From Escherichia coli (GTDB lineage Bacteria; Pseudomonadota; Gammaproteobacteria; Enterobacterales; Enterobacteriaceae): 64,000 nt of DNA. Location: assembly GCF_013315695.1 (NCBI RefSeq), contig NZ_CP054353.1; one strand, 5' to 3'. Shown here one piece after another: positions 11,131-28,371 of this stretch. Both the position numbers and the translations under genes were made by a program. Position 1 is the first letter of the stretch. The number at the start of each line of letters is the position of its first letter. The notes under the pieces were generated by a model. It was not told the origin of the DNA, ran no database searches, and saw nothing but the letters and a program-made list of their open reading frames with translations.

Positions 11131-11258
11131 ATTAAGAAGTCGCAATGAGTATTACTTTGTAAATTGCAGGGTATTGTTTAGCTATCTGTATAACCTGAAC
11201 GTGAGTACTCATTCTTCTCAGTGGCTATTTACCAATATAATTCGGTAATGACTCCAAC

Positions 11259-11762
11259 TTATTGATAGTGTTTTATGTTCAGATAATGCCCGATGACTTT
11301 GTCATGCAGCTCCACCGATTTTGAGAACGACAGCGACTTCCGTCCCAGCCGTGCCAGGTGCTGCCTCAGATTCAGGTTATGCCGCTCAATTCGCTGCGTA
11401 TATCGCTTGCTGATTACGTGCAGCTTTCCCTTCAGGCGGGATTCATACAGCGGCCAGCCATCCGTCATCCATATCACCACGTCAAAGGGTGACAGCAGGC
11501 TCATAAGACGCCCCAGCGTCGCCATAGTGCGTTCACCGAATACGTGCGCAACAACCGTCTTCCGGAGCCTGTCATACGCGTAAAACAGCCAGCGCTGGCG
11601 CGATTTAGCCCCGACATAGCCCCACTGTTCGTCCATTTCCGCGCAGACGATGACGTCACTGCCCGGCTGTATGCGCGAGGTTACCGACTGCGGCCTGAGT
11701 TTTTTAAGTGACGTAAAATCGTGTTGAGGCCAACGCCCATAATGCGGGCTGTTGCCCGGCAT
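11259..11762 (-). CDS. insB: IS1 InsB (transposase made as an InsAB fusion by -1 frameshift)
   Basis: 167-aa ORF overlapping insA in the -1 frame. Confidence 0.9.
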
Positions 11763-11956
11763 CCAACGCCATTCATGGCCATATCAATGATTTTCTGGTG
11801 CGTACCGGGTTGAGAAGCGGTGTAAGTGAACTGCAGTTGCCATGTTTTACGGCAGTGAGAGCAGAGATAGCGCTGATGTCCGGCGGTGCTTTTGCCGTTA
11901 CGCACCACTCCGTCAGTAGCTGAACAGGAGGGACAGCTGATAGAAACAGAAGCCAC
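11681..11956 (-). CDS. insA: IS1 InsA
   Basis: 91-aa zinc-finger ORF at the IRL side of IS1. Confidence 0.9.
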
Positions 11957-12011
11957 TGGAGCACCTCAAAAACACCATCATACGCTAAATCAGTAAGTTG
12001 GCAGCATCACC

Positions 12012-12418
12012 ATATAATTCCATTCACCATTTTTTAATTCAAACAGCTCTGGAAGAGATGACGGTTGCAGAGTCATACGTTTGAGTGGTGCATTTTCATC
12101 ACCCGGGATAACTTTATATCCCATTTTTGCATGGATCTCCGCTGTACCGGGATAGGCTTCTATACCAATTATTGGGTCATTACCCAACTCAATATTAGCA
12201 TTAAGTAATGCGGCAAGGGCGAATCCGGAAGAGTTTGCCACCCCTGAGACAGTCATTATCTGATCAATATAGATATCAATCCTTGGCTGCTCATTGGTCC
12301 ATCTTTTTGCCTGAGAAGTTGGAAGAGTTGAAATATATCCTATCGTGGTTCCGGCGTAACCTGGAACATTGCAGCCAGGGCCTAATGTTATTTCATGAAC
12401 TGTATAGTCCTCAACAGG
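12012..12418 (-). pseudogene. yjiC: yjiC 3' fragment (about codons 142-273), cut by IS1 at both ends
   Basis: Open frame on the minus strand across the whole interval; joins in frame with the 5' fragment at 26432-26854 through the shared 9-mer; natural stop would lie at 11225-11227 beyond the IS1; assignment to yjiC is by synteny (between uxuR and iraD) and by the reconstructed length of 276 codons. Confidence 0.75.
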
Positions 12419-12433
12419 GGTAATGACTCCAAC

Positions 12434-12937
12434 TTACTGATAGTGTTTTATGTTCAGATAATGCCCGATGACCTTGTCATGCAGCTCCACCGATTTTGAG
12501 AACGACAGTGACTTCCGTCCCAGCCTTGCCAGATGTTGTCTCAGATTCAGATTATGTCGCTCAATGCGCTGAGTGTAACGCTTGCTGATAACGTGCAGCT
12601 TTCCCTTCAGGCGTGATTCATACAGCGGCCAGCCATCCGTCATCCATACCACGACCTCAAAGGCCGACAGCAGGCTCAGAAGACGCTCCAGTGTGGCCAG
12701 AGTGCGTTCACCGAAGACGTGCGCCACAACCGTCCTCCGTATCCTGTCATACGCGTAAAACAGCCAGCGCTGACGTGATTTAGCACCGACGTAGCCCCAC
12801 TGTTCGTCCATTTCAGCGCAGACAATCACATCACTGCCCGGTTGTATGCGCGAGGTTACCGACTGCGGCCTGAGTTTTTTAAGTGACGTAAAACCGTGTT
12901 GAGGCCAACGCCCATAATGCGTGCACTGGCGCGACAT
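12434..12937 (-). CDS. insB: IS1 InsB (variant)
   Basis: 167-aa ORF. Confidence 0.9.
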
Positions 12938-13131
12938 CCGACGCCATTCATGGCCATATCAATGATTTTCTGGTGCTTACCGGGCTGAGAGGCGGTATAA
13001 GTGAACTGTAGTTGCCATGTTTTACGGCAATGAGAGCAGAGATAGCGCTGATGTCCGGCAGTGCTTTTGCCGTTACGCACCACGCCTTCAGTAGCGGAGC
13101 AGGAAGGACATCTGATGGAAATGGAAGCCAC
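12856..13131 (-). CDS. insA: IS1 InsA (variant)
   Basis: 91-aa ORF, about 90% identical to the standard copy. Confidence 0.9.
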
Positions 13132-13456
13132 GCAAGCACCTTAAAATCACCATCATACACTAAATCAGTAAGTTGGCAGCATTACCAAATTTTAATTACA
13201 CTTAAGGTGTATATTTTCTATGCAAGCCATCAATTAAAGAGGTGTAATGTGCTGATGACTATTTGTAATCGTTATACATTCTGACCTGGAGTCAGAAGGT
13301 ATTTCTCTGTCGGTGTGTTCACAGGCAGTGTGGTTGATTACATGAAATTCAGTACATTTGCAGTCTCGTTGCCCTTCTCGCCTGCCTTTCGTCATTACCG
13401 ACGGTATTGAATTTCGTTTTGCCCGTTGGGGTTCTCCGGACAAGGAGTTGTTTGTT

Positions 13457-14689
13457 ATGCCACGTTTTTTTGCCCGCCATGCCGCCACGCTGTTTTTCCC
13501 GATGGCGTTGATTTTGTATGATTTTGCCGCGTACCTGTCGACGGACCTGATTCAGCCGGGGATCATTAATGTGGTCCGTGATTTTAATGCCGATGTCAGT
13601 CTGGCCCCGGCAGCCGTCAGTCTCTATCTCGCGGGCGGTATGGCGTTACAGTGGCTGCTGGGGCCGCTTTCCGACAGGATTGGCCGCAGGCCGGTGCTGA
13701 TTACCGGGGCGCTAATATTTACCCTTGCCTGCGCTGCGACAATGTTCACAACGTCTATGACACAGTTTCTTATCGCGCGTGCAATTCAGGGCACCAGTAT
13801 CTGTTTTATTGCCACCGTTGGTTATGTCACGGTGCAGGAGGCGTTCGGCCAGACAAAAGGGATCAGGTTGATGGCGATTATCACCTCCATCGTACTGATT
13901 GCGCCGATTATCGGCCCGCTTTCCGGCGCAGCTCTGATGCACTTTGTACACTGGAAAGTCCTTTTTGCCATCATTGCGATTATGGGTTTTATCTCATTTG
14001 TTGGCTTACTGCTGGCGATGCCAGAGACGGTGAAGCGCGGCGCGGTTTCATTTAGCGCCAAAAGCGTCTTGCGCGATTTTCGTAATGTCTTTTGCAATCG
14101 GCTGTTCCTCTTTGGTGCAGCAACCATCTCTTTAAGCTATATCCCAATGATGAGCTGGGTGGCTGTCTCGCCGGTGATCCTGATTGACGCAGGCGGCTTA
14201 ACGACCTCGCAGTTCGCCTGGACACAGGTTCCGGTATTCGGCGCGGTGATTGTCGCGAATGCCATCGTGGCGCGTTTCGTTAAAGATCCGACCGAACCGC
14301 GCTTTATCTGGCGTGCCGTACCCATTCAACTGGTTGGCCTCGCGCTGTTGATTATCGGCAATCTGCTGTCACCGCACGTCTGGCTGTGGTCGGTGCTGGG
14401 CACCAGTCTGTATGCTTTCGGGATTGGTTTGATTATCCCGACCTTATTCCGCTTTACGCTGTTTTCCAATAAATTACCGAAAGGGACCGTCTCCGCATCG
14501 CTGAATATGGTGATCCTGATGGTGATGTCTGTCTCGGTCGAAATCGGCCGCTGGCTGTGGTTTAACGGCGGTCGCTTGCCGTTTCATCTGTTAGCCGTCG
14601 TGGCGGGCCTTATCGTCGTTTTCACCCTGGCGGGATTGCTTAATCGCGTGCGCCAACATCAGGCTGCCGAGCTGGCGGAGGAGCGGTGA
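13457..14689 (+). CDS. mdtM: Multidrug efflux MFS transporter MdtM
   Basis: 410 aa from [13 protein letters not shown]; recognised MdtM; the track ORF extends 33 codons upstream. Confidence 0.9.
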
Positions 14690-14729
14690 TTTTTGCGCGA
14701 TCCTGCCGTCAGGCTCTATTCTTAACATT

Positions 14730-16010
14730 ATGAATAAACTCATTGAACTCAGACGCGCCAAAATGTTGGCGCTCTCTTTACTGCTTATCGCCGCTGCTAC
14801 CTTTGTCGTTACGCTGTTTTTGCCACCCAATTTTTGGGTGAGCGGTGTGAAGGCGATTGCTGAAGCGGCGATGGTCGGCGCGCTGGCAGACTGGTTTGCG
14901 GTGGTGGCGCTGTTTCGCCGCGTGCCGATTCCGATCATTTCTCGTCATACGGCGATTATCCCGCGTAATAAAGACCGGATTGGCGAAAATCTCGGTCAGT
15001 TCGTGCAGGAAAAATTTCTCGATACCCAATCGCTGGTGGCATTGATTCGACGTCACGAACCGGTGTTGTTGATTGGCAACTGGTTTAGTCAGCCAGAAAA
15101 CGCCCGCCGCGTTGGTCAGCATCTGTTGCAGATCATGAGTGGTTTTCTTGAACTGACCGATGATGCGCGTATTCAGCGCCTGCTTAAGCGCGCAGTCCAT
15201 CGGGCGATTGATAAGATCGATCTTTCCGGCACCAGTGCGTTGATGCTGGAGAGTATGACCAAAAACGATCGTCATCAGGTGCTGCTGGATACGCTGATCG
15301 CGCAGTTGATTGCTCTTCTCCAGCGCGATAAATCGCGCAAGTTTATTGCCCAGCAAATTGTTCGCTGGCTGGAGAGCGAGCATCCGCTGAAAGCCAAAAT
15401 TTTGCCTACTGAATGGCTGGGCGAACATAGCGCGGAGTTGGTTTCTGACGCGGTGAATTCTTTGCTTGATGATATCAGCCGCGATCGTGTACATCAGATC
15501 CGCCATGCGTTTGATCGCGCCACTTTTGCCCTGATCGACAAGTTGAAAAACGATCCGGAAATGGCAGCGCGAGCCGATGCCGTAAAAAGTTATCTGAAAG
15601 AAGATGAAGCTTTTAACCGCTATCTCAGTGAATTGTGGGGGGATTTACGGGAATGGCTGAAAGCGGATATCGACAGTGAAGATTCTCGTGTGAAAGAACG
15701 TATCGCGCGGGCGGGTCAATGGTTTGGCGAAACGTTAATTGCCGATGATGCCTTGCGGGCGTCGTTAAATGGTCACCTGGAACAAGCCGCGCACCGCGTC
15801 GCGCCTGAGTTTTCCGCATTCCTGACGCGCCACATCAGCGATACGGTAAAAAGCTGGGATGCGCGGGATATGTCGCGGCAAATAGAGTTAAATATCGGCA
15901 AAGATCTGCAGTTTATCCGTGTCAACGGTACGCTGGTCGGCGGTTGTATTGGGCTAATTTTGTATTTGCTGTCGCAGCTCCCGGCCTTATTCCCCCTCAG
16001 CAATTTTTAG
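14730..16010 (+). CDS. yjiN: DUF445 inner-membrane protein YjiN
   Basis: 426-aa ORF; sequence and synteny. Confidence 0.85.
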
Positions 16011-16125
16011 AAATCCATGAAAAACTAAGTGGCTAACCGCGAGAGAGATCAAATAAACCACACTAAAAGAATGGTAATAATGTGGCCTCTTTTCATTATC
16101 TCCCGTGGTACGGGGAAGGAAAATC

Positions 16126-18054
<1,929 letters not shown>

Positions 18055-18225
18055 AAGAGTATCTGTTTTTATTTCACTCCACGGTCGGCGTCATACAAAC
18101 CCGCAAGGCGTTGCAGGCAGCGGGCATGACTTTTCGCGTCAGCGATATTCCCCGTGATTTACGCGGCGGCTGCGGGTTATGCATTTGGCTGACCTGTCCG
18201 CCTGGCGAGGAAATTCAATGGGTGA

Positions 18226-19233
<1,008 letters not shown>

Positions 19234-19300
19234 CAGGCTGGCATGTTTCACCTTTTTGTTATTAACTTGTTAACAACAAAAATGACAAACAAGGTTAAAC

Positions 19301-20479
19301 ATGCCTTCGCCCTCGCATCCCGTAGAACGCTTTTCTTTCAGCACCGCGCTTTTCGGGATGCTGGTTCTGACCTTAGGTATGGGTTTAGGCCGCTTCCTTT
19401 ATACGCCTATGTTGCCCGTCATGATGGCGGAAGGATCGTTTTCATTTAGCCAGCTCTCGTGGATTGCCAGCGGCAACTATGCGGGGTATCTGGCTGGCAG
19501 TCTGCTATTTTCGTTTGGCGCATTTCACCAGCCATCGCGCCTGCGCCCATTTCTGTTGGCTTCTGCCCTAGCGAGCGGGTTGTTGATCCTCGCAATGGCA
19601 TGGTTGCTGCCATTTATTCTGGTGTTATTGATTCGCGTCCTGGCGGGTGTCGCCAGCGCCGGTATGCTGATTTTTGGTTCGACGCTGATTATGCAGCACA
19701 CGCGCCATCCTTTTGTGCTGGCAGCTTTGTTTTCTGGCGTTGGCATTGGCATCGCACTGGGCAATGAATATGTTCTGGCAGGCCTGCATTTTGACCTCTC
19801 CTCGCAAACGTTATGGCAAGGCGCCGGGGCGCTTTCTGGCATGATGCTGATTGCACTTACGCTTTTAATGCCCTCGAAAAAACACGCCATCACACCAATG
19901 CCATTGGCAAAAACGGAGCAACAGATAATGAGCTGGTGGTTACTGGCTATTCTGTACGGCCTGGCGGGATTTGGTTATATCATCGTCGCGACTTACCTGC
20001 CGCTCATGGCGAAAGATGCAGGCTCACCATTGTTAACCGCCCATCTCTGGACGTTAGTCGGCTTATCAATTGTGCCTGGTTGCTTTGGCTGGCTATGGGC
20101 AGCAAAACGTTGGGGGGCTTTGCCCTGCCTGACGGCGAATTTGCTGGTGCAGGCTATCTGTGTGCTGCTTACTCTCGCCAGCGACTCGCCTCTCTTGCTT
20201 ATCATCAGCAGTCTTGGTTTTGGCGGTACCTTTATGGGCACGACATCTCTGGTGATGACTATCGCCCGCCAACTGAGCGTACCGGGAAATCTCAATCTTT
20301 TAGGCTTTGTGACGCTCATTTACGGCATTGGACAAATCCTCGGCCCGGCGCTGACCAGTATGCTCGGCAATGGAACATCGGCGCTTGCCGGCGCCACTCT
20401 CTGCGGCGCGGCGGCGTTGTTTATTGCTGCGCTTATCAGCACAGTACAATTATTTAAGCTGCAAGTGGTCACTTCATGA
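19301..20479 (+). CDS. yjiJ: MFS-type transporter YjiJ
   Basis: 392-aa polytopic ORF; synteny. Confidence 0.85.
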
Positions 20480-20491
20480 GGAGTGTTTCCC

Positions 20492-21046
20492 TTACCACTC
20501 AAGAAATTCGACCGCAACCGTTGATGTCAGCCAGACCCCGTTTTCCGCTTGCCAGAAAGGGAGGCCTCGTTTCGCCATTTCCTGTGCTTTGACGGTTAAA
20601 ATAACCGGCGATCCGTGTCTTGCTCCCACTTTGCGTGCCGTTGCTTCATCAGCAGAGAGATGTACGTAGTGACGCTCACCTGCAATCAGCCCCTGTTTTT
20701 TTATCTCGTCAAGGAAACGGCTTGCCGTACCGTGGTAGAGAAACTGTGGCGGTGTTTTTTCGGCAAAGGAAATAGCGACCTGCGAAGTCGAATGCCCCTG
20801 AACCGCGCGGATGCACCTACCATCACTGGAATAACTAAAACGCTTTTTATCGCTGGTGGCAACCACGGTATCCAGCAATGCACGGGTTAACCGCTTGCCC
20901 GCTTTTTGGGCACAAAGTATGAGCTTATCGATATCCGCCCATCCTTCACGGTCCAGTACGATACCAATCGCCTCCGGTTTGTGTCGGAGGACAAAACTTA
21001 AAAACTTGCTCGTATCCGCCAGCTCTTTTTCGTTGTACTTTGCCAT
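20492..21046 (-). CDS. kptA: RNA 2'-phosphotransferase KptA (Tpt1 family)
   Basis: 184-aa ORF recognised as KptA. Confidence 0.88.
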
Positions 21047-21295
21047 CGCGTTTTCGTCCCTGGATTATCTGTTTTTTATTTACTATGTCATTGTCACTGG
21101 GTTTATGAATTTTCTGCAACTCAATCCTGCGTAGAACCTTTTCCACACAGCGTAATTTTACCGCTATGCAAAAAACGCATAGTCAGAAACATACTTGCAT
21201 TTTCCCCATACCCACATGGCTGATAAGGTTTTTCAGCTCCAGGAATTTTCCTGGCTCAAGCAACACACAAACACAAAAAAACAATGGGGATTGTT

Positions 21296-21979
21296 ATGAC
21301 ACAACAAGGGGATGCTGTAGCCGGGGAGCTGGCGACAGAAAAAGTGGGCATTAAAGGGTATCTGGCTTTTTTTCTCACCATAATCTTTTTTTCCGGTGTT
21401 TTTTCCGGGACAGACAGTTGGTGGCGCGTTTTTGATTTTTCCGTTCTGAACGGATCGTTTGGGCAACTGCCTGGTGCGAACGGAGCCACCACCTCGTTTC
21501 GCGGCGCGGGTGGCGCGGGGGCTAAAGATGGCTTTCTCTTTGCGCTGGAGCTGGCACCGTCAGTCATTCTCTCTCTGGGGATTATTTCAATTACCGATGG
21601 TCTTGGCGGATTACGCGCCGCGCAGCAGTTAATGACGCCAGTGCTAAAACCGTTGTTGGGCATTCCAGGGATCTGCTCGCTGGCGCTGATCGCTAACCTG
21701 CAAAACACCGATGCCGCCGCAGGTATGACCAAAGAGCTGGCGCAGGAAGGTGAAATTACCGAACGCGATAAAGTGATTTTCGCCGCATATCAAACCAGCG
21801 GTAGCGCCATTATCACCAACTACTTCTCTTCCGGCGTCGCGGTGTTTGCCTTTCTGGGCACGTCCGTAATCGTACCTTTAGCAGTCATCCTGGTGTTTAA
21901 ATTTGTCGGAGCCAACATTTTGCGCGTCTGGCTTAACTTCGAAGAACGTCGCAACCCAACGCAAGGAGCGCAAGCATGA
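21296..21979 (+). CDS. yjiH: Inner-membrane protein YjiH
   Basis: 227 aa from MTQQGDAV; overlaps the yjiG start. Confidence 0.85.
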   Translation: MTQQGDAVAGELATEKVGIKGYLAFFLTIIFFSGVFSGTDSWWRVFDFSVLNGSFGQLPGANGATTSFRGAGGAGAKDGFLFALELAPSVILSLGIISITDGLGGLRAAQQLMTPVLKPLLGIPGICSLALIANLQNTDAAAGMTKELAQEGEITERDKVIFAAYQTSGSAIITNYFSSGVAVFAFLGTSVIVPLAVILVFKFVGANILRVWLNFEERRNPTQGAQA

Positions 21980-22437
21980 CAACTCAGGTCCGCAAAAACG
22001 TCATGGATATGTTTATCGATGGTGCGCGCCGTGGCTTTACTATCGCCACGACCAACCTGCTGCCAAACGTGGTGATGGCGTTTGTCATCATTCAGGCGCT
22101 GAAAATTACCGGCCTGCTCGACTGGGTGGGGCATATCTGTGAACCCGTAATGGCGCTGTGGGGATTACCCGGTGAAGCGGCAACCGTCCTTTTAGCCGCA
22201 TTAATGAGTATGGGTGGCGCAGTCGGTGTTGCCGCCAGTCTGGCAACCGCTGGCGCATTAACCGGTCACGATGTCACCGTTTTACTGCCCGCGATGTATT
22301 TAATGGGCAACCCGGTGCAAAATGTCGGTCGCTGCCTGGGGACAGCCGAAGTGAATGCCAAATATTACCCGCATATCATTACGGTCTGCGTGATTAACGC
22401 ATTGCTGTCGATCTGGGTTATGCAGCTTATTGTTTAA
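21976..22437 (+). CDS. yjiG: Inner-membrane protein YjiG
   Basis: 153-aa ORF; synteny. Confidence 0.85.
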   Translation: MTTQVRKNVMDMFIDGARRGFTIATTNLLPNVVMAFVIIQALKITGLLDWVGHICEPVMALWGLPGEAATVLLAALMSMGGAVGVAASLATAGALTGHDVTVLLPAMYLMGNPVQNVGRCLGTAEVNAKYYPHIITVCVINALLSIWVMQLIV

Positions 22438-22449
22438 CAAGGAGTTACC

Positions 22450-23622
22450 ATGATTGATTATACCGCAGCCGGTTTTACCCTGCTGCAGGGAGCGCATTTG
22501 TATGCGCCGGAAGATCGGGGAATTTGCGATGTCCTCGTCGCTAACGGCAAAATTATCGCCGTTGCCAGTAATATCCCTTCTGACATTGTACCGGACTGCA
22601 CGGTTGTCGATCTCAGCGGGCAGATCCTCTGCCCAGGTTTTATTGATCAACACGTCCATTTGATTGGCGGTGGCGGCGAAGCAGGTCCCACGACGCGCAC
22701 GCCGGAAGTGGCGTTAAGTCGTCTGACGGAAGCAGGCGTCACGTCAGTGGTTGGTCTGCTGGGCACCGACTCTATCTCTCGCCACCCGGAATCCCTGCTC
22801 GCCAAGACCCGTGCGCTCAATGAAGAAGGCATCAGCGCCTGGATGCTGACCGGCGCTTATCATGTCCCTTCCCGCACTATTACGGGTTCCGTGGAAAAAG
22901 ACGTGGCGATTATCGATCGCGTGATTGGCGTGAAATGCGCCATCTCTGATCACCGTTCTGCCGCACCGGACGTTTATCACCTGGCTAATATGGCGGCGGA
23001 ATCCCGCGTTGGCGGTTTGCTCGGCGGTAAACCTGGCGTCACCGTGTTCCACATGGGCGACAGCAAAAAGGCGTTACAGCCTGTCTATGACCTGCTGGAA
23101 AACTGCGATGTGCCGATTAGCAAGTTGCTGCCGACCCACGTTAACCGCAACGTTCCGTTGTTTGAGCAGGCGCTGGAGTTCGCGCGCAAAGGCGGCACCA
23201 TCGATATCACCAGCAGCATTGACGAACCAGTCGCCCCTGCCGAAGGTATTGCCCGCGCCGTTCAGGCGGGTATTCCGCTGGCACGCGTCACCCTCAGCTC
23301 CGACGGCAACGGTAGCCAGCCGTTCTTCGATGACGAAGGGAATTTAACCCATATCGGTGTTGCCGGTTTTGAAACGTTGCTGGAAACCGTGCAGGTGCTG
23401 GTCAAAGATTATGATTTCAGTATCAGCGATGCCCTGCGCCCGCTCACCAGTAGCGTAGCCGGTTTCCTTAACCTGAGCGGGAAAGGCGAAATTCTGCCAG
23501 GCAATGACGCAGACTTACTGGTCATGACGCCAGAATTACGTATTGAGCAGGTATACGCTCGCGGCAAGCTGATGGTCAAAGACGGCAAAGCCTGCGTGAA
23601 AGGAACGTTTGAAACGGCATAA
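22450..23622 (+). CDS. iadA: Isoaspartyl dipeptidase IadA
   Basis: 390-aa ORF with an amidohydrolase-type metal-binding motif (HVHLIGGGG); recognised IadA. Confidence 0.9.
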   Translation: MIDYTAAGFTLLQGAHLYAPEDRGICDVLVANGKIIAVASNIPSDIVPDCTVVDLSGQILCPGFIDQHVHLIGGGGEAGPTTRTPEVALSRLTEAGVTSVVGLLGTDSISRHPESLLAKTRALNEEGISAWMLTGAYHVPSRTITGSVEKDVAIIDRVIGVKCAISDHRSAAPDVYHLANMAAESRVGGLLGGKPGVTVFHMGDSKKALQPVYDLLENCDVPISKLLPTHVNRNVPLFEQALEFARKGGTIDITSSIDEPVAPAEGIARAVQAGIPLARVTLSSDGNGSQPFFDDEGNLTHIGVAGFETLLETVQVLVKDYDFSISDALRPLTSSVAGFLNLSGKGEILPGNDADLLVMTPELRIEQVYARGKLMVKDGKACVKGTFETA

Positions 23623-23686
23623 ACGGTTGTCAGCCGCCCGAATGGACGTAGAATGCCCGCAAGGGCGGCTGACAGAGTAAAACGTA

Positions 23687-24598
23687 ATGGATGACTGTGG
23701 TGCGGTTTTGCATAATATTGAAACTAAATGGCTTTATGATTTTCTGACCCTGGAAAAATGCCGCAATTTTTCCCAGGCAGCAGTCAGTCGCAACGTCTCG
23801 CAACCGGCATTCAGCCGCCGCATCCGTGCGCTGGAACAGGCGATTGGCGTTGAATTGTTTAACCGCCAGGTGACGCCGCTGCAACTCTCGGAACAAGGTA
23901 AAATATTCCATTCGCAGATCCGCCATCTGTTGCAACAGTTAGAGAGCAACCTTGCAGAACTCCGTGGTGGCAGCGATTACGCGCAACGCAAAATTAAAAT
24001 AGCCGCTGCACACTCTCTTTCCCTCGGGCTGTTACCGTCCATTATCAGCCAGATGCCGCCGCTCTTTACCTGGGCAATTGAAGCTATTGATGTCGATGAA
24101 GCGGTCGATAAACTGCGTGAAGGGCAAAGTGACTGTATTTTTTCCTTTCACGACGAAGATTTGCTGGAAGCGCCGTTTGACCACATTCGCTTATTTGAAT
24201 CTCAATTGTTCCCCGTTTGCGCCAGTGACGAACACGGAGAAGCACTTTTTAACCTCGCGCAGCCACACTTTCCGTTACTGAATTACAGCCGCAACTCCTA
24301 CATGGGGCGATTGATTAATCGCACCCTGACGCGCCACAGTGAGTTAAGTTTCAGCACCTTTTTTGTCTCTTCGATGAGCGAGCTTTTAAAGCAGGTTGCC
24401 CTCGACGGCTGTGGGATTGCCTGGCTACCGGAATACGCCATCCAACAAGAAATTCGCAGCGGGCAGCTCGTTGTACTGAATCGGGACGAACTGGTGATCC
24501 CGATTCAGGCCTATGCATACCGGATGAATACCCGCATGAATCCAGTTGCCGAACGCTTCTGGCGTGAACTGCGCGAGCTGGAGATTGTGCTTAGCTGA
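23687..24598 (+). CDS. hypT: LysR-family hypochlorite-responsive regulator HypT (YjiE)
   Basis: 303-aa LysR-type ORF with N-terminal HTH; synteny. Confidence 0.88.
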
Positions 24599-24983
24599 CA
24601 TTCTCCAGCGTCGCACTGCGCCAACCGCCATTATCCCAGACCAGATCAAACGTTAGCGATTCATCGTCGTGATACAGCATTATCTCAAGGCTGATCGCCA
24701 GAGTGTGGCAGTACGCTTCTTTCAAATTAACCTGCAACGCCGCAATCCGTGGCTCATGAAATAACAGTGCAGAACGCAGCTGACGGCAATACCAGCTCTG
24801 GAGATGTTTGTCGCTCGGGTTATGCACTTGCCACTCGGGCATGCCTGAAACAAGTAATGACGGTAATGCCGAATGAGGAGAATTAAAAAGAGTGAGGAGA
24901 TCGCTGCATACTGATTTACGCAGCGGTGACGTTTTATTGCCTGAAATTTCAGGTAAAACAGCCTGAAGTGATTGGCGCATCAT
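24591..24983 (-). CDS. iraD: Anti-adaptor protein IraD (RpoS stabiliser)
   Basis: 130 aa from MMRQSLQAV; recognised IraD. Confidence 0.88.
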
Positions 24984-25455
24984 TTTGCGCACTCCTGACG
25001 TTTAGCAACATATGCGGCTTGCCCTGAACACCGGGCACCACTGTATTGATGCTCATTTTCCATAGCCATTCCCTTTTGTTCATTACATCCATGTCAGTCT
25101 GAGACAGGCCTGAATCCTGTCAGCAAAGTATAAAACCTTACTTGCCTATGAATATCTACTGACTTTTCAGGAAAAAAGTCATGATTTGATAAAAATCATC
25201 AAACTCAAAAAAAAACCGCTAGTATATTCTGAATATTCCGAATAGTTACGTAGATGAAAATACTTGTCACCACCGCTACTTAATTCCGGTGGGAAATTAT
25301 TTATTTCCGCATAATCAGCCATGTATTATTTAAAACAATTAGTTTGTAAATAATATAAATTGATAACATATCAAATACATCAAAAATACCATTCACAGGC
25401 ATTATTAATATAGACATCAATATAGCAACATCAAATTCCAGGTAATGACTCCAAC

Positions 25456-25959
25456 TTATTGATAGTGTTTTATGTTCAGATAATGCCCGATGACTTTGTC
25501 ATGCAGCTCCACCGATTTTGAGAACGACAGCGACTTCCGTCCCAGCCGTGCCAGGTGCTGCCTCAGATTCAGGTTATGCCGCTCAATTCGCTGCGTATAT
25601 CGCTTGCTGATTACGTGCAGCTTTCCCTTCAGGCGGGATTCATACAGCGGCCAGCCATCCGTCATCCATATCACCACGTCAAAGGGTGACAGCAGGCTCA
25701 TAAGACGCCCCAGCGTCGCCATAGTGCGTTCACCGAATACGTGCGCAACAACCGTCTTCCGGAGCCTGTCATACGCGTAAAACAGCCAGCGCTGGCGCGA
25801 TTTAGCCCCGACATAGCCCCACTGTTCGTCCATTTCCGCGCAGACGATGACGTCACTGCCCGGCTGTATGCGCGAGGTTACCGACTGCGGCCTGAGTTTT
25901 TTAAGTGACGTAAAATCGTGTTGAGGCCAACGCCCATAATGCGGGCTGTTGCCCGGCAT
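25456..25959 (-). CDS. insB: IS1 InsB
   Basis: 167-aa ORF. Confidence 0.9.
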
Positions 25960-26153
25960 CCAACGCCATTCATGGCCATATCAATGATTTTCTGGTGCGT
26001 ACCGGGTTGAGAAGCGGTGTAAGTGAACTGCAGTTGCCATGTTTTACGGCAGTGAGAGCAGAGATAGCGCTGATGTCCGGCGGTGCTTTTGCCGTTACGC
26101 ACCACCCCGTCAGTAGCTGAACAGGAGGGACAGCTGATAGAAACAGAAGCCAC
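25878..26153 (-). CDS. insA: IS1 InsA
   Basis: 91-aa ORF. Confidence 0.9.
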
Positions 26154-26431
26154 TGGAGCACCTCAAAAACACCATCATACACTAAATCAGTAAGTTGGCA
26201 GCATCACCCAAATTCCAATTAGTAATAAGATATGCTTTTAAATTGCATGCAAATAATTTTAAATGAGCGTTTTTTGATACTTTAGAGTGTTTCCCACCAT
26301 TTAATATCACTGTGTAGAGTTGATATCACTACAACAGAAACATGCATGTCATTTGTTTACTTCTCTTTTTACTACAGAAAAATTTATCTATTTTTCTAAG
26401 CATCAGTGAAATACTCATAAAGGTAACTATT

Positions 26432-26854
26432 ATGTCTATGCCATTAAGCAATGCCCTTCAGAGTCAAATTATTACAGATAATCACTTCCTTCATCATCCA
26501 AAAGTCGACAGTGAGTTAACACGTAAACATGAACGTGGACGCATGGATACGGAAAATATCTATCTTCCGCCTCTTGCTCGTGGCAATAACCATAATTACG
26601 ATGGAAAAAGCGTTGTCGAAATTAGAAAACTTGATATTAGTAAAGAGTCCTGGCCATTTAATTATGTGACAGAAACATGCAGAGAATTCAATGGTATTAC
26701 AACAACAGGACGTATGCTCTATCGAAACTTGAAAATCACCTCAGCTTTAGACGAAATATATGGTGGTATATGTAAAAAGGCGCATGCTGCCACAGAGTTA
26801 GCAGAAGGATTACGGCTAAATTTATTTATGAAAAGCCCTTTCGATCCTGTTGAG
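26432..26854 (+). pseudogene. yjiC: yjiC 5' fragment (codons 1-141), truncated by IS1; separated from its 3' half by the inversion
   Basis: ORF starting MSMPLSNALQ with an upstream aaaggt RBS-like motif; reading frame runs directly into the IS1 inverted repeat at 26855; last three codons (cct gtt gag) are the 9-bp target sequence. Confidence 0.75.
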
Positions 26855-26909
26855 GGTAATGCTGCCAACTTACTGATTTAGTGTATGATGGTGATTTTAA
26901 GGTGCTTGC

Positions 26910-27185
26910 GTGGCTTCCATTTCCATCAGATGTCCTTCCTGCTCCGCTACTGAAGGCGTGGTGCGTAACGGCAAAAGCACTGCCGGACATCAGCGCTATC
27001 TCTGCTCTCATTGCCGTAAAACATGGCAACTACAGTTCACTTATACCGCCTCTCAGCCCGGTAAGCACCAGAAAATCATTGATATGGCCATGAATGGCGT
27101 CGGATGTCGCGCCAGTGCACGCATTATGGGCGTTGGCCTCAACACGGTTTTACGTCACTTAAAAAACTCAGGCCGCAGTCGGTAA
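26910..27185 (+). CDS. insA: IS1 InsA (variant)
   Basis: 91-aa ORF. Confidence 0.9.
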
Positions 27186-27607
27186 CCTCGCGCATACAAC
27201 CGGGCAGTGATGTGATTGTCTGCGCTGAAATGGACGAACAGTGGGGCTACGTCGGTGCTAAATCACGTCAGCGCTGGCTGTTTTACGCGTATGACAGGAT
27301 ACGGAGGACGGTTGTGGCGCACGTCTTCGGTGAACGCACTCTGGCCACACTGGAGCGTCTTCTGAGCCTGCTGTCGGCCTTTGAGGTCGTGGTATGGATG
27401 ACGGATGGCTGGCCGCTGTATGAATCACGCCTGAAGGGAAAGCTGCACGTTATCAGCAAGCGTTACACTCAGCGCATTGAGCGACATAATCTGAATCTGA
27501 GACAACATCTGGCAAGGCTGGGACGGAAGTCACTGTCGTTCTCAAAATCGGTGGAGCTGCATGACAAGGTCATCGGGCATTATCTGAACATAAAACACTA
27601 TCAGTAA
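27104..27607 (+). CDS. insB: IS1 InsB (variant)
   Basis: 167-aa ORF; TTAAAAAAC frameshift motif at 27149-27157. Confidence 0.9.
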
Positions 27608-27805
27608 GTTGGAGTCATTACCCGACAGCGAGGTGTTTAGTGTGCCATGTCAGGCGAGAAATTCTATTGGATGAATCAAGTCCAACTTACTCATTGTCAA
27701 TTTCATGGTTGATTATTCGAAACGTGATGCTATTTCCAACATCAACGCTATAATTGCAGAATAATTGTAGATACATTTTTGTATATACAATTAGGGATGG
27801 CAATT

Positions 27806-28082
27806 ATGCCAATGGAGTTTGAATGGGATGAAAACAAGGCCAAAAGTAATCGGGTGAAACATGGCATCCGCTTTGAAGATGCGGTGTTATTGTTTGATGA
27901 TCCACAACATTTGTCACAGCAAGAACGCATAGAAAACGGTGAGTATCGCTGGCAGACATTACGGCATCGTGGTTATTCTGGTTGCGCATACCATCCGTTT
28001 CGAAAGCGGAAATGAAATTATTCGAATCATCAGTGCACGAAAAGCAGATCGTAAAGAGAGGAATCGCTATGAGCATGGTTAA
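27806..28082 (+). pseudogene. BrnT-like (DUF497) ribonuclease toxin gene, apparently frameshifted
   Basis: N-terminal MPMEFEWDENKAKSNRVKHGIRFEDAVLLFDDPQ in one frame ends after QTL; the conserved C-terminal IRIISARKA motif continues in another frame from about 27963 to the stop at 28080-28082; agggatgg upstream of the ATG. Confidence 0.7.
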
Positions 28083-28371
28083 ACATAAACGAGGGACCTC
28101 CTCTACACTCGATGTGCAGCATGAGGCCGAACTGAAGGCGCTGGCGAATAAATCCGACGAAGATATTGATTACAGTGATATCCCACCTTCCAGCGATGAG
28201 CAATGGTCTAACGCCGAACGCGGTAAGTTTTATCGGCCATTGAAAACTCAGGCTTCGGTGCGTATTGATGCTGATGTGATGGAATGGTTGAAGCGACCAG
28301 GTAAAGGCTATCAAACTCGCCTGAACGCAATTTTACGTGAAGCGATGCTGCGCGATCAGAACAAAAAATAA
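28069..28371 (+). CDS. BrnA-like antitoxin (ribbon-helix-helix family)
   Basis: About 100 aa from MSMVKHKRG; C-terminal GKGYQTRLNAILREAM typical of BrnA; start overlaps the toxin stop by 14 bp. Confidence 0.7.
   Translation: MSMVKHKRGTSSTLDVQHEAELKALANKSDEDIDYSDIPPSSDEQWSNAERGKFYRPLKTQASVRIDADVMEWLKRPGKGYQTRLNAILREAMLRDQNKK

Follow-up and report, generated by a model that had tools for sequence, protein, structure and literature searches.

How does a short piece of chromosome come to hold four copies of the same insertion sequence (IS), two of which bound a segment in reversed gene order? We address this question for a 64,000-nucleotide stretch of an Escherichia coli chromosome (contig NZ_CP054353.1), hereafter the window, in which four IS1 copies surround the two halves of the interrupted gene yjiC. 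A preliminary description of this sequence had read the cluster as a locally active hotspot in an accessory stretch of an IS1-rich genome. We found instead that two of the four copies are old inherited fixtures, that one is lineage-specific and that one, the newest, is strain-specific. We consider it probable that the locus records four IS1 events of differing ages in an IS1-rich lineage, with the inversion produced by intramolecular replicative transposition of a resident copy.

IS1 copies and the inverted segment

Repeat finding and direct comparison confirmed the four IS1 copies, here named A to D in order of position, at 768 bp each (Table 1). No further IS1 copy was found in the 64-kb window, and for the 76-nt IS1 end pattern 0 chance matches are expected. 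All four copies have the length and the ends of the IS1 family, in which imperfect terminal repeats of about 23 bp read GGTRATG...CCAACTTAYTGAT; read directly, the left inverted repeat (IRL) is GGTGATGCTGCCAACTTACTGAT or GGTAATGCTGCCAACTTACTGAT and the right inverted repeat (IRR) is GGTAATGACTCCAACTTAYTGAT. Each copy also contains open frames for a 91-aa InsA and a 167-aa InsB, with insA overlapping insB′ in the −1 frame and the A6C slippery motif AAAAAAC for the InsAB′ transposase at position 307. The equivalent copies in strain AF3, one of the two closest genomes, are annotated by RefSeq as IS1 transposases with a programmed frameshift. The 8-9 bp target-site duplications (TSDs) of the family are represented by direct 9-bp repeats at A and C, and by a split, inverted 9-bp pair at B and D.

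The copies were typed against the annotated elements of K-12 MG1655, IS1A (NC_000913 19796-20563) and IS1F (NC_000913 4518472-4519239), and the earlier distinction of two isoforms with two copies each was borne out. A and C are nearly identical to K-12 IS1A; of the 768 positions of B and D, 5 depart from K-12 IS1F and about 70 from IS1A. Between the two pairs, 69-70 of 768 positions differ (about 91% identity). K-12 has four IS1 types, of which IS1F carries 73 mismatches relative to the consensus (PMC12428005), a figure with which the distance of B and D from IS1A agrees. Furthermore, the reverse complement of D reproduces B exactly, with 0 differences in 768 positions. A and C had been described as differing by a single base with identical proteins; we found two base differences, at IS1 positions 28 and 103 (numbered from the end nearer insA); position 28 precedes insA and the change at 103 is synonymous within it, so that InsA and InsB are indeed identical. 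Between the isoforms, InsA differs at 6 of 91 residues (6.6%) and InsB at 14 of 167 (8.4%), less than the protein divergence of about 10% first given, and the InsB of B and D begins as first read. K-12 IS1F has a stop codon in insB at position 542. B and D are without that stop and are potentially autonomous, because their insB frame is intact.

A and C are simple insertions flanked by perfect direct repeats, as had been proposed. Copy A lies three codons ahead of the yjiC stop codon and changes the YjiC C-terminus from IGK* to MVMLPTY*. Copy C occupies the intergenic region between yjiC and ytiC, 15-23 bp ahead of the start codon of ytiC. Together with its duplications (25432-26217) it is inside the long upstream region of ytiC-ytiD-idlP-iraD, and from this position it may alter the expression of iraD, which encodes an RpoS anti-adaptor.

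The flanks of B and D are of a different kind, with no direct duplication at either copy. The outer flank of B, ctcaacagg (12410-12418), is the reverse complement of the inner flank of D, cctgttgag (26846-26854), and is thus half of a split target duplication; the inner flank of B, upstream of mdtM, and the outer flank of D, upstream of brnT, do not match. Between the two copies lies a segment of about 13.7 kb, from mdtM to the 5′ half of yjiC. We reversed these events in silico: A and C were removed along with one TSD each, B and D were removed, the inner segment was re-inverted and one 9-mer was dropped. The reconstructed 14,523 bp aligns to K-12 in one high-scoring segment pair with 97.3% identity and 3 gaps, and its two yjiC fragments join into a 276-aa open reading frame colinear with K-12 YjiC, which places the B/D target at yjiC codon 141.

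Collectively, these results uphold the earlier identification of B and D as inversion breakpoints. The segment has a copy of one and the same IS at each end, the two in inverted orientation, and its gene order is the reverse of that in K-12 and in strains LSN03-016011/A and 042; the target occurs once at each new junction, in inverted orientation. The IRL end of B retains the ancestral mdtM-side flank and the IRR end of D the ancestral brnT-side flank, both the same as those of the single copy in LSN03-016011/A. The sole gene lost is yjiC, and the flipped genes are intact. GC skew gives no clear reversal across the inverted segment and is not informative at this scale. A literature search returned no published description of this particular inversion, which is an instance of a textbook IS-mediated rearrangement; the isoforms, the 9-bp duplications and the IS1-rich lineage are all known categories.

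Two identical inverted IS1 copies that bracket 13.7 kb could also suggest an IS1-flanked composite transposon, with B, D and the DNA between them inserted as a unit. However, the outer flanks, ctcaacagg and cgacagcga, do not form a direct duplication, the genes inside are those that natively adjoin uxuR and yjiA, only in reversed order, and pre-inversion genomes carry the same genes with a single IS1. We reject this reading, whose probability we regard as negligible.

Table 1. Features of the IS1-bearing part of the window (positions in the window; the strand of an IS1 copy is that of insA)
Feature	Position	Strand	Remarks
IS1 copy A, IS1A-type	11244-12011	-	3 nt from K-12 IS1A; TSD atataattc at 11235-11243 and 12012-12020
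yjiC C-terminal fragment (DUF2686)	12012-12418	-	stranded between A and B; annotated in AF3 as partial DUF2686 protein
IS1 copy B, IS1F-type	12419-13186	-	left inversion breakpoint; reverse complement of D; 5 nt from K-12 IS1F; insB intact
Segment inverted relative to K-12 and pre-inversion strains	13187-26854		mdtM, yjiN, yjiM, yjiL, ytiA, yjiK, yjiJ, kptA, yjiH, yjiG, iadA, hypT, iraD, ytiD, ytiC to the yjiC N-terminal fragment; copy C inside
IS1 copy C, IS1A-type	25441-26208	-	1 nt from K-12 IS1A; TSD caaattcca at 25432-25440 and 26209-26217
yjiC N-terminal fragment, codons 1-141	26432-26854	+	ends at the 9-bp cctgttgag; annotated in AF3 as partial DUF2686 protein; translation enters copy D
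IS1 copy D, IS1F-type	26855-27622	+	right inversion breakpoint; 0 differences from B
brnT (frameshifted) and brnA, toxin-antitoxin genes	27806-28371	+	coordinates carried over from the AF3 annotation

Ancestral arrangement and ages of the copies

The arrangement before the inversion is preserved in LSN03-016011/A, in the order tsr-btsT-yjiX-yjiA-brnA-brnT-[one IS1F-type copy]-mdtM...iraD-yjiC (intact)-[copy A]-uxuR. The flanks of its single IS1F-type copy are exactly the outer flank of D and the inner flank of B, and its copy A matches that of the window in site and duplication. The mdtM-IS1-brnTA-yjiA arrangement is also that of E. coli 042. The closest genomes are AF3, from blood in the UK, and MSB1_4I, from a rectal swab in Australia. 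A, B, D and the inversion are common to both, and C is absent from both: in AF3 the site of C is empty, with a single caaattcca, and MSB1_4I carries no IS1 here beyond A, B and D.

We extended this comparison to 5,426 complete E. coli genomes by searching for each junction separately. The junction of copy A with yjiC is found in 263 genomes, including H10407, SE15 and ATCC 8739. IS1 joined to the brnT-side flank (the outer junction of D) occurs in 1,112 genomes, IS1 joined to this mdtM-side flank (the inner junction of B) in 447, and a contiguous brnT-IS1-mdtM in 1,003. By contrast with these junctions, the one between an IS1F-type copy and yjiC, which marks the inversion, is present in 2 genomes only, the near-identical strains AF3 and MSB1_4I, and the number of collection genomes that cover the region with C present is 0. 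The counts of 263, 1,112, 447, 2 and 0 indicate that the copies are of very different age. Accordingly, a burst of local activity is contradicted by the spread of A and of the brnT-side copy, and what is left of the hotspot is a narrower one in yjiC (see below). More generally, IS counts per window overstate local activity unless the junctions are dated by comparison; here 2 of the 4 copies are old.

The claim of an IS1-rich genome fared better. Whichever isoform serves as query, AF3 and MSB1_4I each give at least 40 IS1 matches, while genomes with any IS1 have a median of 11; about 390 of 20,395 records reach 40 or more. Junction-plus-IS queries do not separate the isoforms, as a shared 35-nt run seeds megablast, and IS1F-type copies were counted with a 161-nt divergent query and a strict E-value cut-off. 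By this count AF3 has 3 (B, D and a defective copy adjacent to fec) and MSB1_4I has 3, with a median of 2 per genome. IS1A-type matches number at least 40 in both strains. The lineage thus owes its wealth of IS1 to expansion of the IS1A-type, of which copy C is the latest product. In K-12, nearly all IS1 transposition comes from the IS1A/IS1E consensus type, while IS1F, the type IV element beside the fec operon, is essentially immobile (PMC12428005). The activity of this type in K-12 fits the present lineage, where C, the newest insertion, and the increase to at least 40 copies are both IS1A-type.

The window and AF3 differ at only four sites in 20,224 aligned bases, three of them inside IS1 copies: positions 262 and 677 of A (window 11335 and 11750) and position 190 of B (window 12997). 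Each of these three differences brings the copy nearer to a sister copy, a pattern that indicates either that IS1 copies have converted one another or that polishing introduced artefacts into the repeats. Separately, copy B of MSB1_4I (locus L007, 4420-5173) lacks 14 bp (IS1 positions 542-555) that AF3 and the window retain, a strain-specific inactivation of one inversion-bounding copy.

We also considered whether the four-copy arrangement, in whole or in part, could be an artefact of collapsed or chimeric repeats, which we judge here from the assembled sequence alone. The concentration of three of the four differences within IS1 could reflect short-read polishing across repeats. However, two independent assemblies from different countries (AF3 and MSB1_4I) have the same A, B and D junctions, all junctions carry the expected 9-bp duplications, removal of the elements restores colinearity with K-12 and an intact yjiC frame, and in AF3 the site of copy C is cleanly empty. 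An assembly artefact is therefore very unlikely.

Route to the inversion and its recurrence

Under the reading that we prefer, the first event would be the old IS1A-type insertion A at the 3′ end of yjiC, inherited by many strains. The second would be an IS1F-type copy, likewise old and widely inherited, in the mdtM-brnT interval that borders the immigration control region, a variable defence locus; this copy is not flanked by a target duplication. In a recent ancestor of this strain, AF3 and MSB1_4I, this resident copy would then have transposed replicatively into yjiC, 13.7 kb away. Both IS ends would have attacked the 9-bp target ctcaacagg, and the second, inverted copy, the inversion and the inverted target pair would have arisen together. 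Latest of all, and in this strain only, the IS1A-type copy C would have entered the DNA ahead of ytiC and made a direct 9-bp duplication of the usual kind.

Several lines of evidence are consistent with this single step. IS1 moves replicatively within the chromosome (PMC12428005), and matched inverted target pairs on two IS copies are an accepted signature of one-step intramolecular replicative transposition (PMC4471558). IS1-family elements are thought to use that route, according to Turlan and Chandler 1995 as cited in PMC4471558. At our locus both old flanks are kept, one per copy, with the inverted 9-bp target at the new junctions, which fits intramolecular replicative transposition. In addition, given how few IS1F-type copies there are, the only new IS1F-type copy of the lineage is the one tied to the inversion.

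The same signature recurs in other strains. EC22 (NZ_CM169479.1; locus L003, 11669-12436 and 21051-21818) carries an independent inversion from the resident IS1F-type copy, with its second breakpoint in yjiH and the inverted target pair gagaagtag. Strain 720632 (NZ_CP025842.1; locus L012, 4760-5526 and 11797-12563) carries another, with its second breakpoint in yjiJ and the inverted target pair gtggattgc. The resident copy has thus given rise to at least three independent inversions, 6-14 kb in length, whose second breakpoints lie in yjiJ, yjiH and yjiC. In both EC22 and 720632 the two copies are identical within the strain and carry insB-inactivating mutations; these defective copies must therefore have been mobilised by the transposase of other IS1 copies. 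The resident copy upstream of brnT is present in about one fifth of E. coli, and about 10% of its carriers are without the contiguous mdtM-side arrangement.

The same final structure could be reached in two steps. A daughter of the resident copy would first enter yjiC, inverted relative to its parent and flanked by a direct 9-bp duplication, and RecA-dependent recombination between the two copies would then flip the 13.7 kb and split the duplication. This route predicts exactly the flanks observed, two identical 768-bp inverted repeats are good recombination substrates, and simple IS1 insertions do occur here (A, C and the IS1A-type insertions of strains 98193 and EC190486). It would nevertheless pass through an intermediate with an IS1F-type copy in yjiC and no inversion, and none was found among the 5,426 genomes, which counts weakly against it. 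Furthermore, it would require two coincident steps in each of three independent lineages, since in each the new copy of the resident element lies 6-14 kb away, is always inverted and always accompanies a flipped segment, while elsewhere IS1F-type copies remain at about 2 per genome. The fec-adjacent IS1F copy was also considered as the donor for a two-step route and was rejected: in AF3, its A542, T677 and T703 would be expected in B and are absent there.

Several points weigh against a single step. Insertion followed by homologous recombination gives an identical final structure, and sequence alone cannot separate the routes. The resident copy is without a target duplication of its own. In AF3 and MSB1_4I, position 190 is C in B, as in the resident copy of LSN03-016011/A, and T in D; one step predicts identical copies, so this difference needs one later change, whereas under the two-step route it could be explained by a donor other than the resident copy. 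In the window, position 190 is T in both B and D. Since the sister genomes differ there, the 100% identity of B and D in the window is a derived state and not the trace of a recent duplication. It follows that perfect identity of two IS copies is no proof that they duplicated very recently, as the earlier one-base difference in the sister genomes illustrates.

On balance we favour the one-step route, on the grounds that no un-inverted intermediate was found, that the IS1F-type is static at about 2 copies per genome and that two further inversions carry the same signature; to the two-step route we assign a lower, still appreciable, probability.

Hotspot, genomic setting and comparison with known systems

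We found that the uxuR-ytiC interval, with 36.8% G+C against 51% for the window, received three independent IS1 events within about 1.1 kb of ancestral DNA in this strain. Two unrelated genomes have IS1A-type insertions in yjiC, strain 98193 (locus L010, 4002-4769) with the target gagcccttt and EC190486 (locus L011, 4045-4812) with the target gccctttcg. These targets lie 13-15 bp from the cctgttgag of the window, which makes three independent insertions within 22 bp (window 26825-26854). The three insertions, two of the IS1A-type and one of the IS1F-type, share their orientation and adjoin an A/T tract. AT-rich yjiC is thus a tight, repeated IS1 target, narrower than the hotspot first proposed. 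Inspection by eye only revealed no convincing likeness of this target to IS1 ends or to an IHF site.

A broader possibility, still tentative, is that the resident IS1F-type copy is a recurrent inversion generator beside a defence island, in two of the three cases as a defective isoform moved in trans by abundant IS1A-type copies, with the 22-bp target in yjiC as a hotspot. In 720632 the fec-adjacent IS1F copy abuts a truncated fimH (locus L012, 25301-26436), which implies a candidate IS1-adjacent deletion of the DNA between fec and fimH.

The window contains fim genes, gntP, uxuAB, uxuR, the yji block, brnTA, yjiA, yjiX, btsT, tsr and onward. The K-12 order is uxuR-yjiC-ytiCD-iraD-hypT-iadA-yjiGH-kptA-yjiJKL-yjiM-yjiN-mdtM, followed by the hsd-mcr-mrr immigration control region and then yjiA; that region is a defence island with yjiA and yjiN as its bounds (PMC12707154). 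The stretch first described as accessory is therefore mainly the conserved uxuR-yjiC-iraD...yjiN-mdtM block adjoining a known variable island. The immigration control region genes of K-12 (hsdRMS, mcrBC and mrr) are absent from the window (13187-13456 and 27623-28371). With the inversion undone, the lineage has between yjiN and yjiA just mdtM, one IS1 and the brnT/brnA toxin-antitoxin pair, with brnT annotated as frameshifted in the closest genomes; in comparison with K-12, brnTA and the resident IS1 take the place of the hsd-mcr-mrr region. The ancestral flanks of the resident copy carry no target duplication, the K-12 alignment stops about 270 bp upstream of mdtM and the mdtM-side flank of EC22 differs. 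The missing duplication would be compatible with older IS1-mediated deletions in, or replacement of, the immigration control region.

Elsewhere in the window, four tandem tRNA-Leu(CAG) genes lie at 46740-47184, and of their 121-nt units the first and second are 100% identical. At this locus E. coli 042 has three such genes, and the array in the window looks like a recent tandem duplication of one unit.

Taken together, these results carry little weight beyond a strain-level genome description, as IS1 isoforms, IS1-rich lineages and IS-bounded inversions are well documented. What seems mildly novel is only that a resident IS1F-type copy bordering a defence island, often a defective one, has repeatedly given rise to inversions; these may offer a small natural data set on trans-mobilisation and on chromosomal intramolecular transposition. 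In practice, the inversion reverses the yjiN anchor, and anchor-based surveys of the immigration control region would mis-measure the island in such strains.

The closest parallel is provided by the inversions described for IS26 (He et al. 2015, PMC4471558), in which inverted IS copies likewise bound the segment, an inverted target pair marks the junctions and a relative with a single copy represents the state before the event. Unlike the IS26 cases (PMC4471558), the present inversion affects core genes of a chromosome and not resistance plasmids, the target is the 9 bp of IS1 rather than the 8 bp of IS26, and the one-step origin is one that we infer. As in the published immigration control region (PMC12707154), both anchors, yjiA and yjiN, are present, and one of the two inversion breakpoints is a resident IS1 within that variable locus. 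In contrast to the region elsewhere, the island of the window is without hsd, mcr and mrr and holds only mdtM, one IS1 and brnTA, and the inversion has turned the yjiN anchor round and placed it about 13 kb from yjiA.

Among the elements themselves, A and C resemble K-12 IS1A in their length of 768 bp, the same insA and insB′ frames, the A6C motif at 307 and the 9-bp target duplications. They differ from it in that C has G for T at position 444, giving Arg for Ser at InsB residue 65, and in that A has two more lineage markers, C28 and A103. B and D are close in sequence to K-12 IS1F and belong to a type that is low in copy number across E. coli (median 2). Unlike K-12 IS1F, they sit at the mdtM-brnT boundary and in yjiC rather than beside fec, and their insB is intact.

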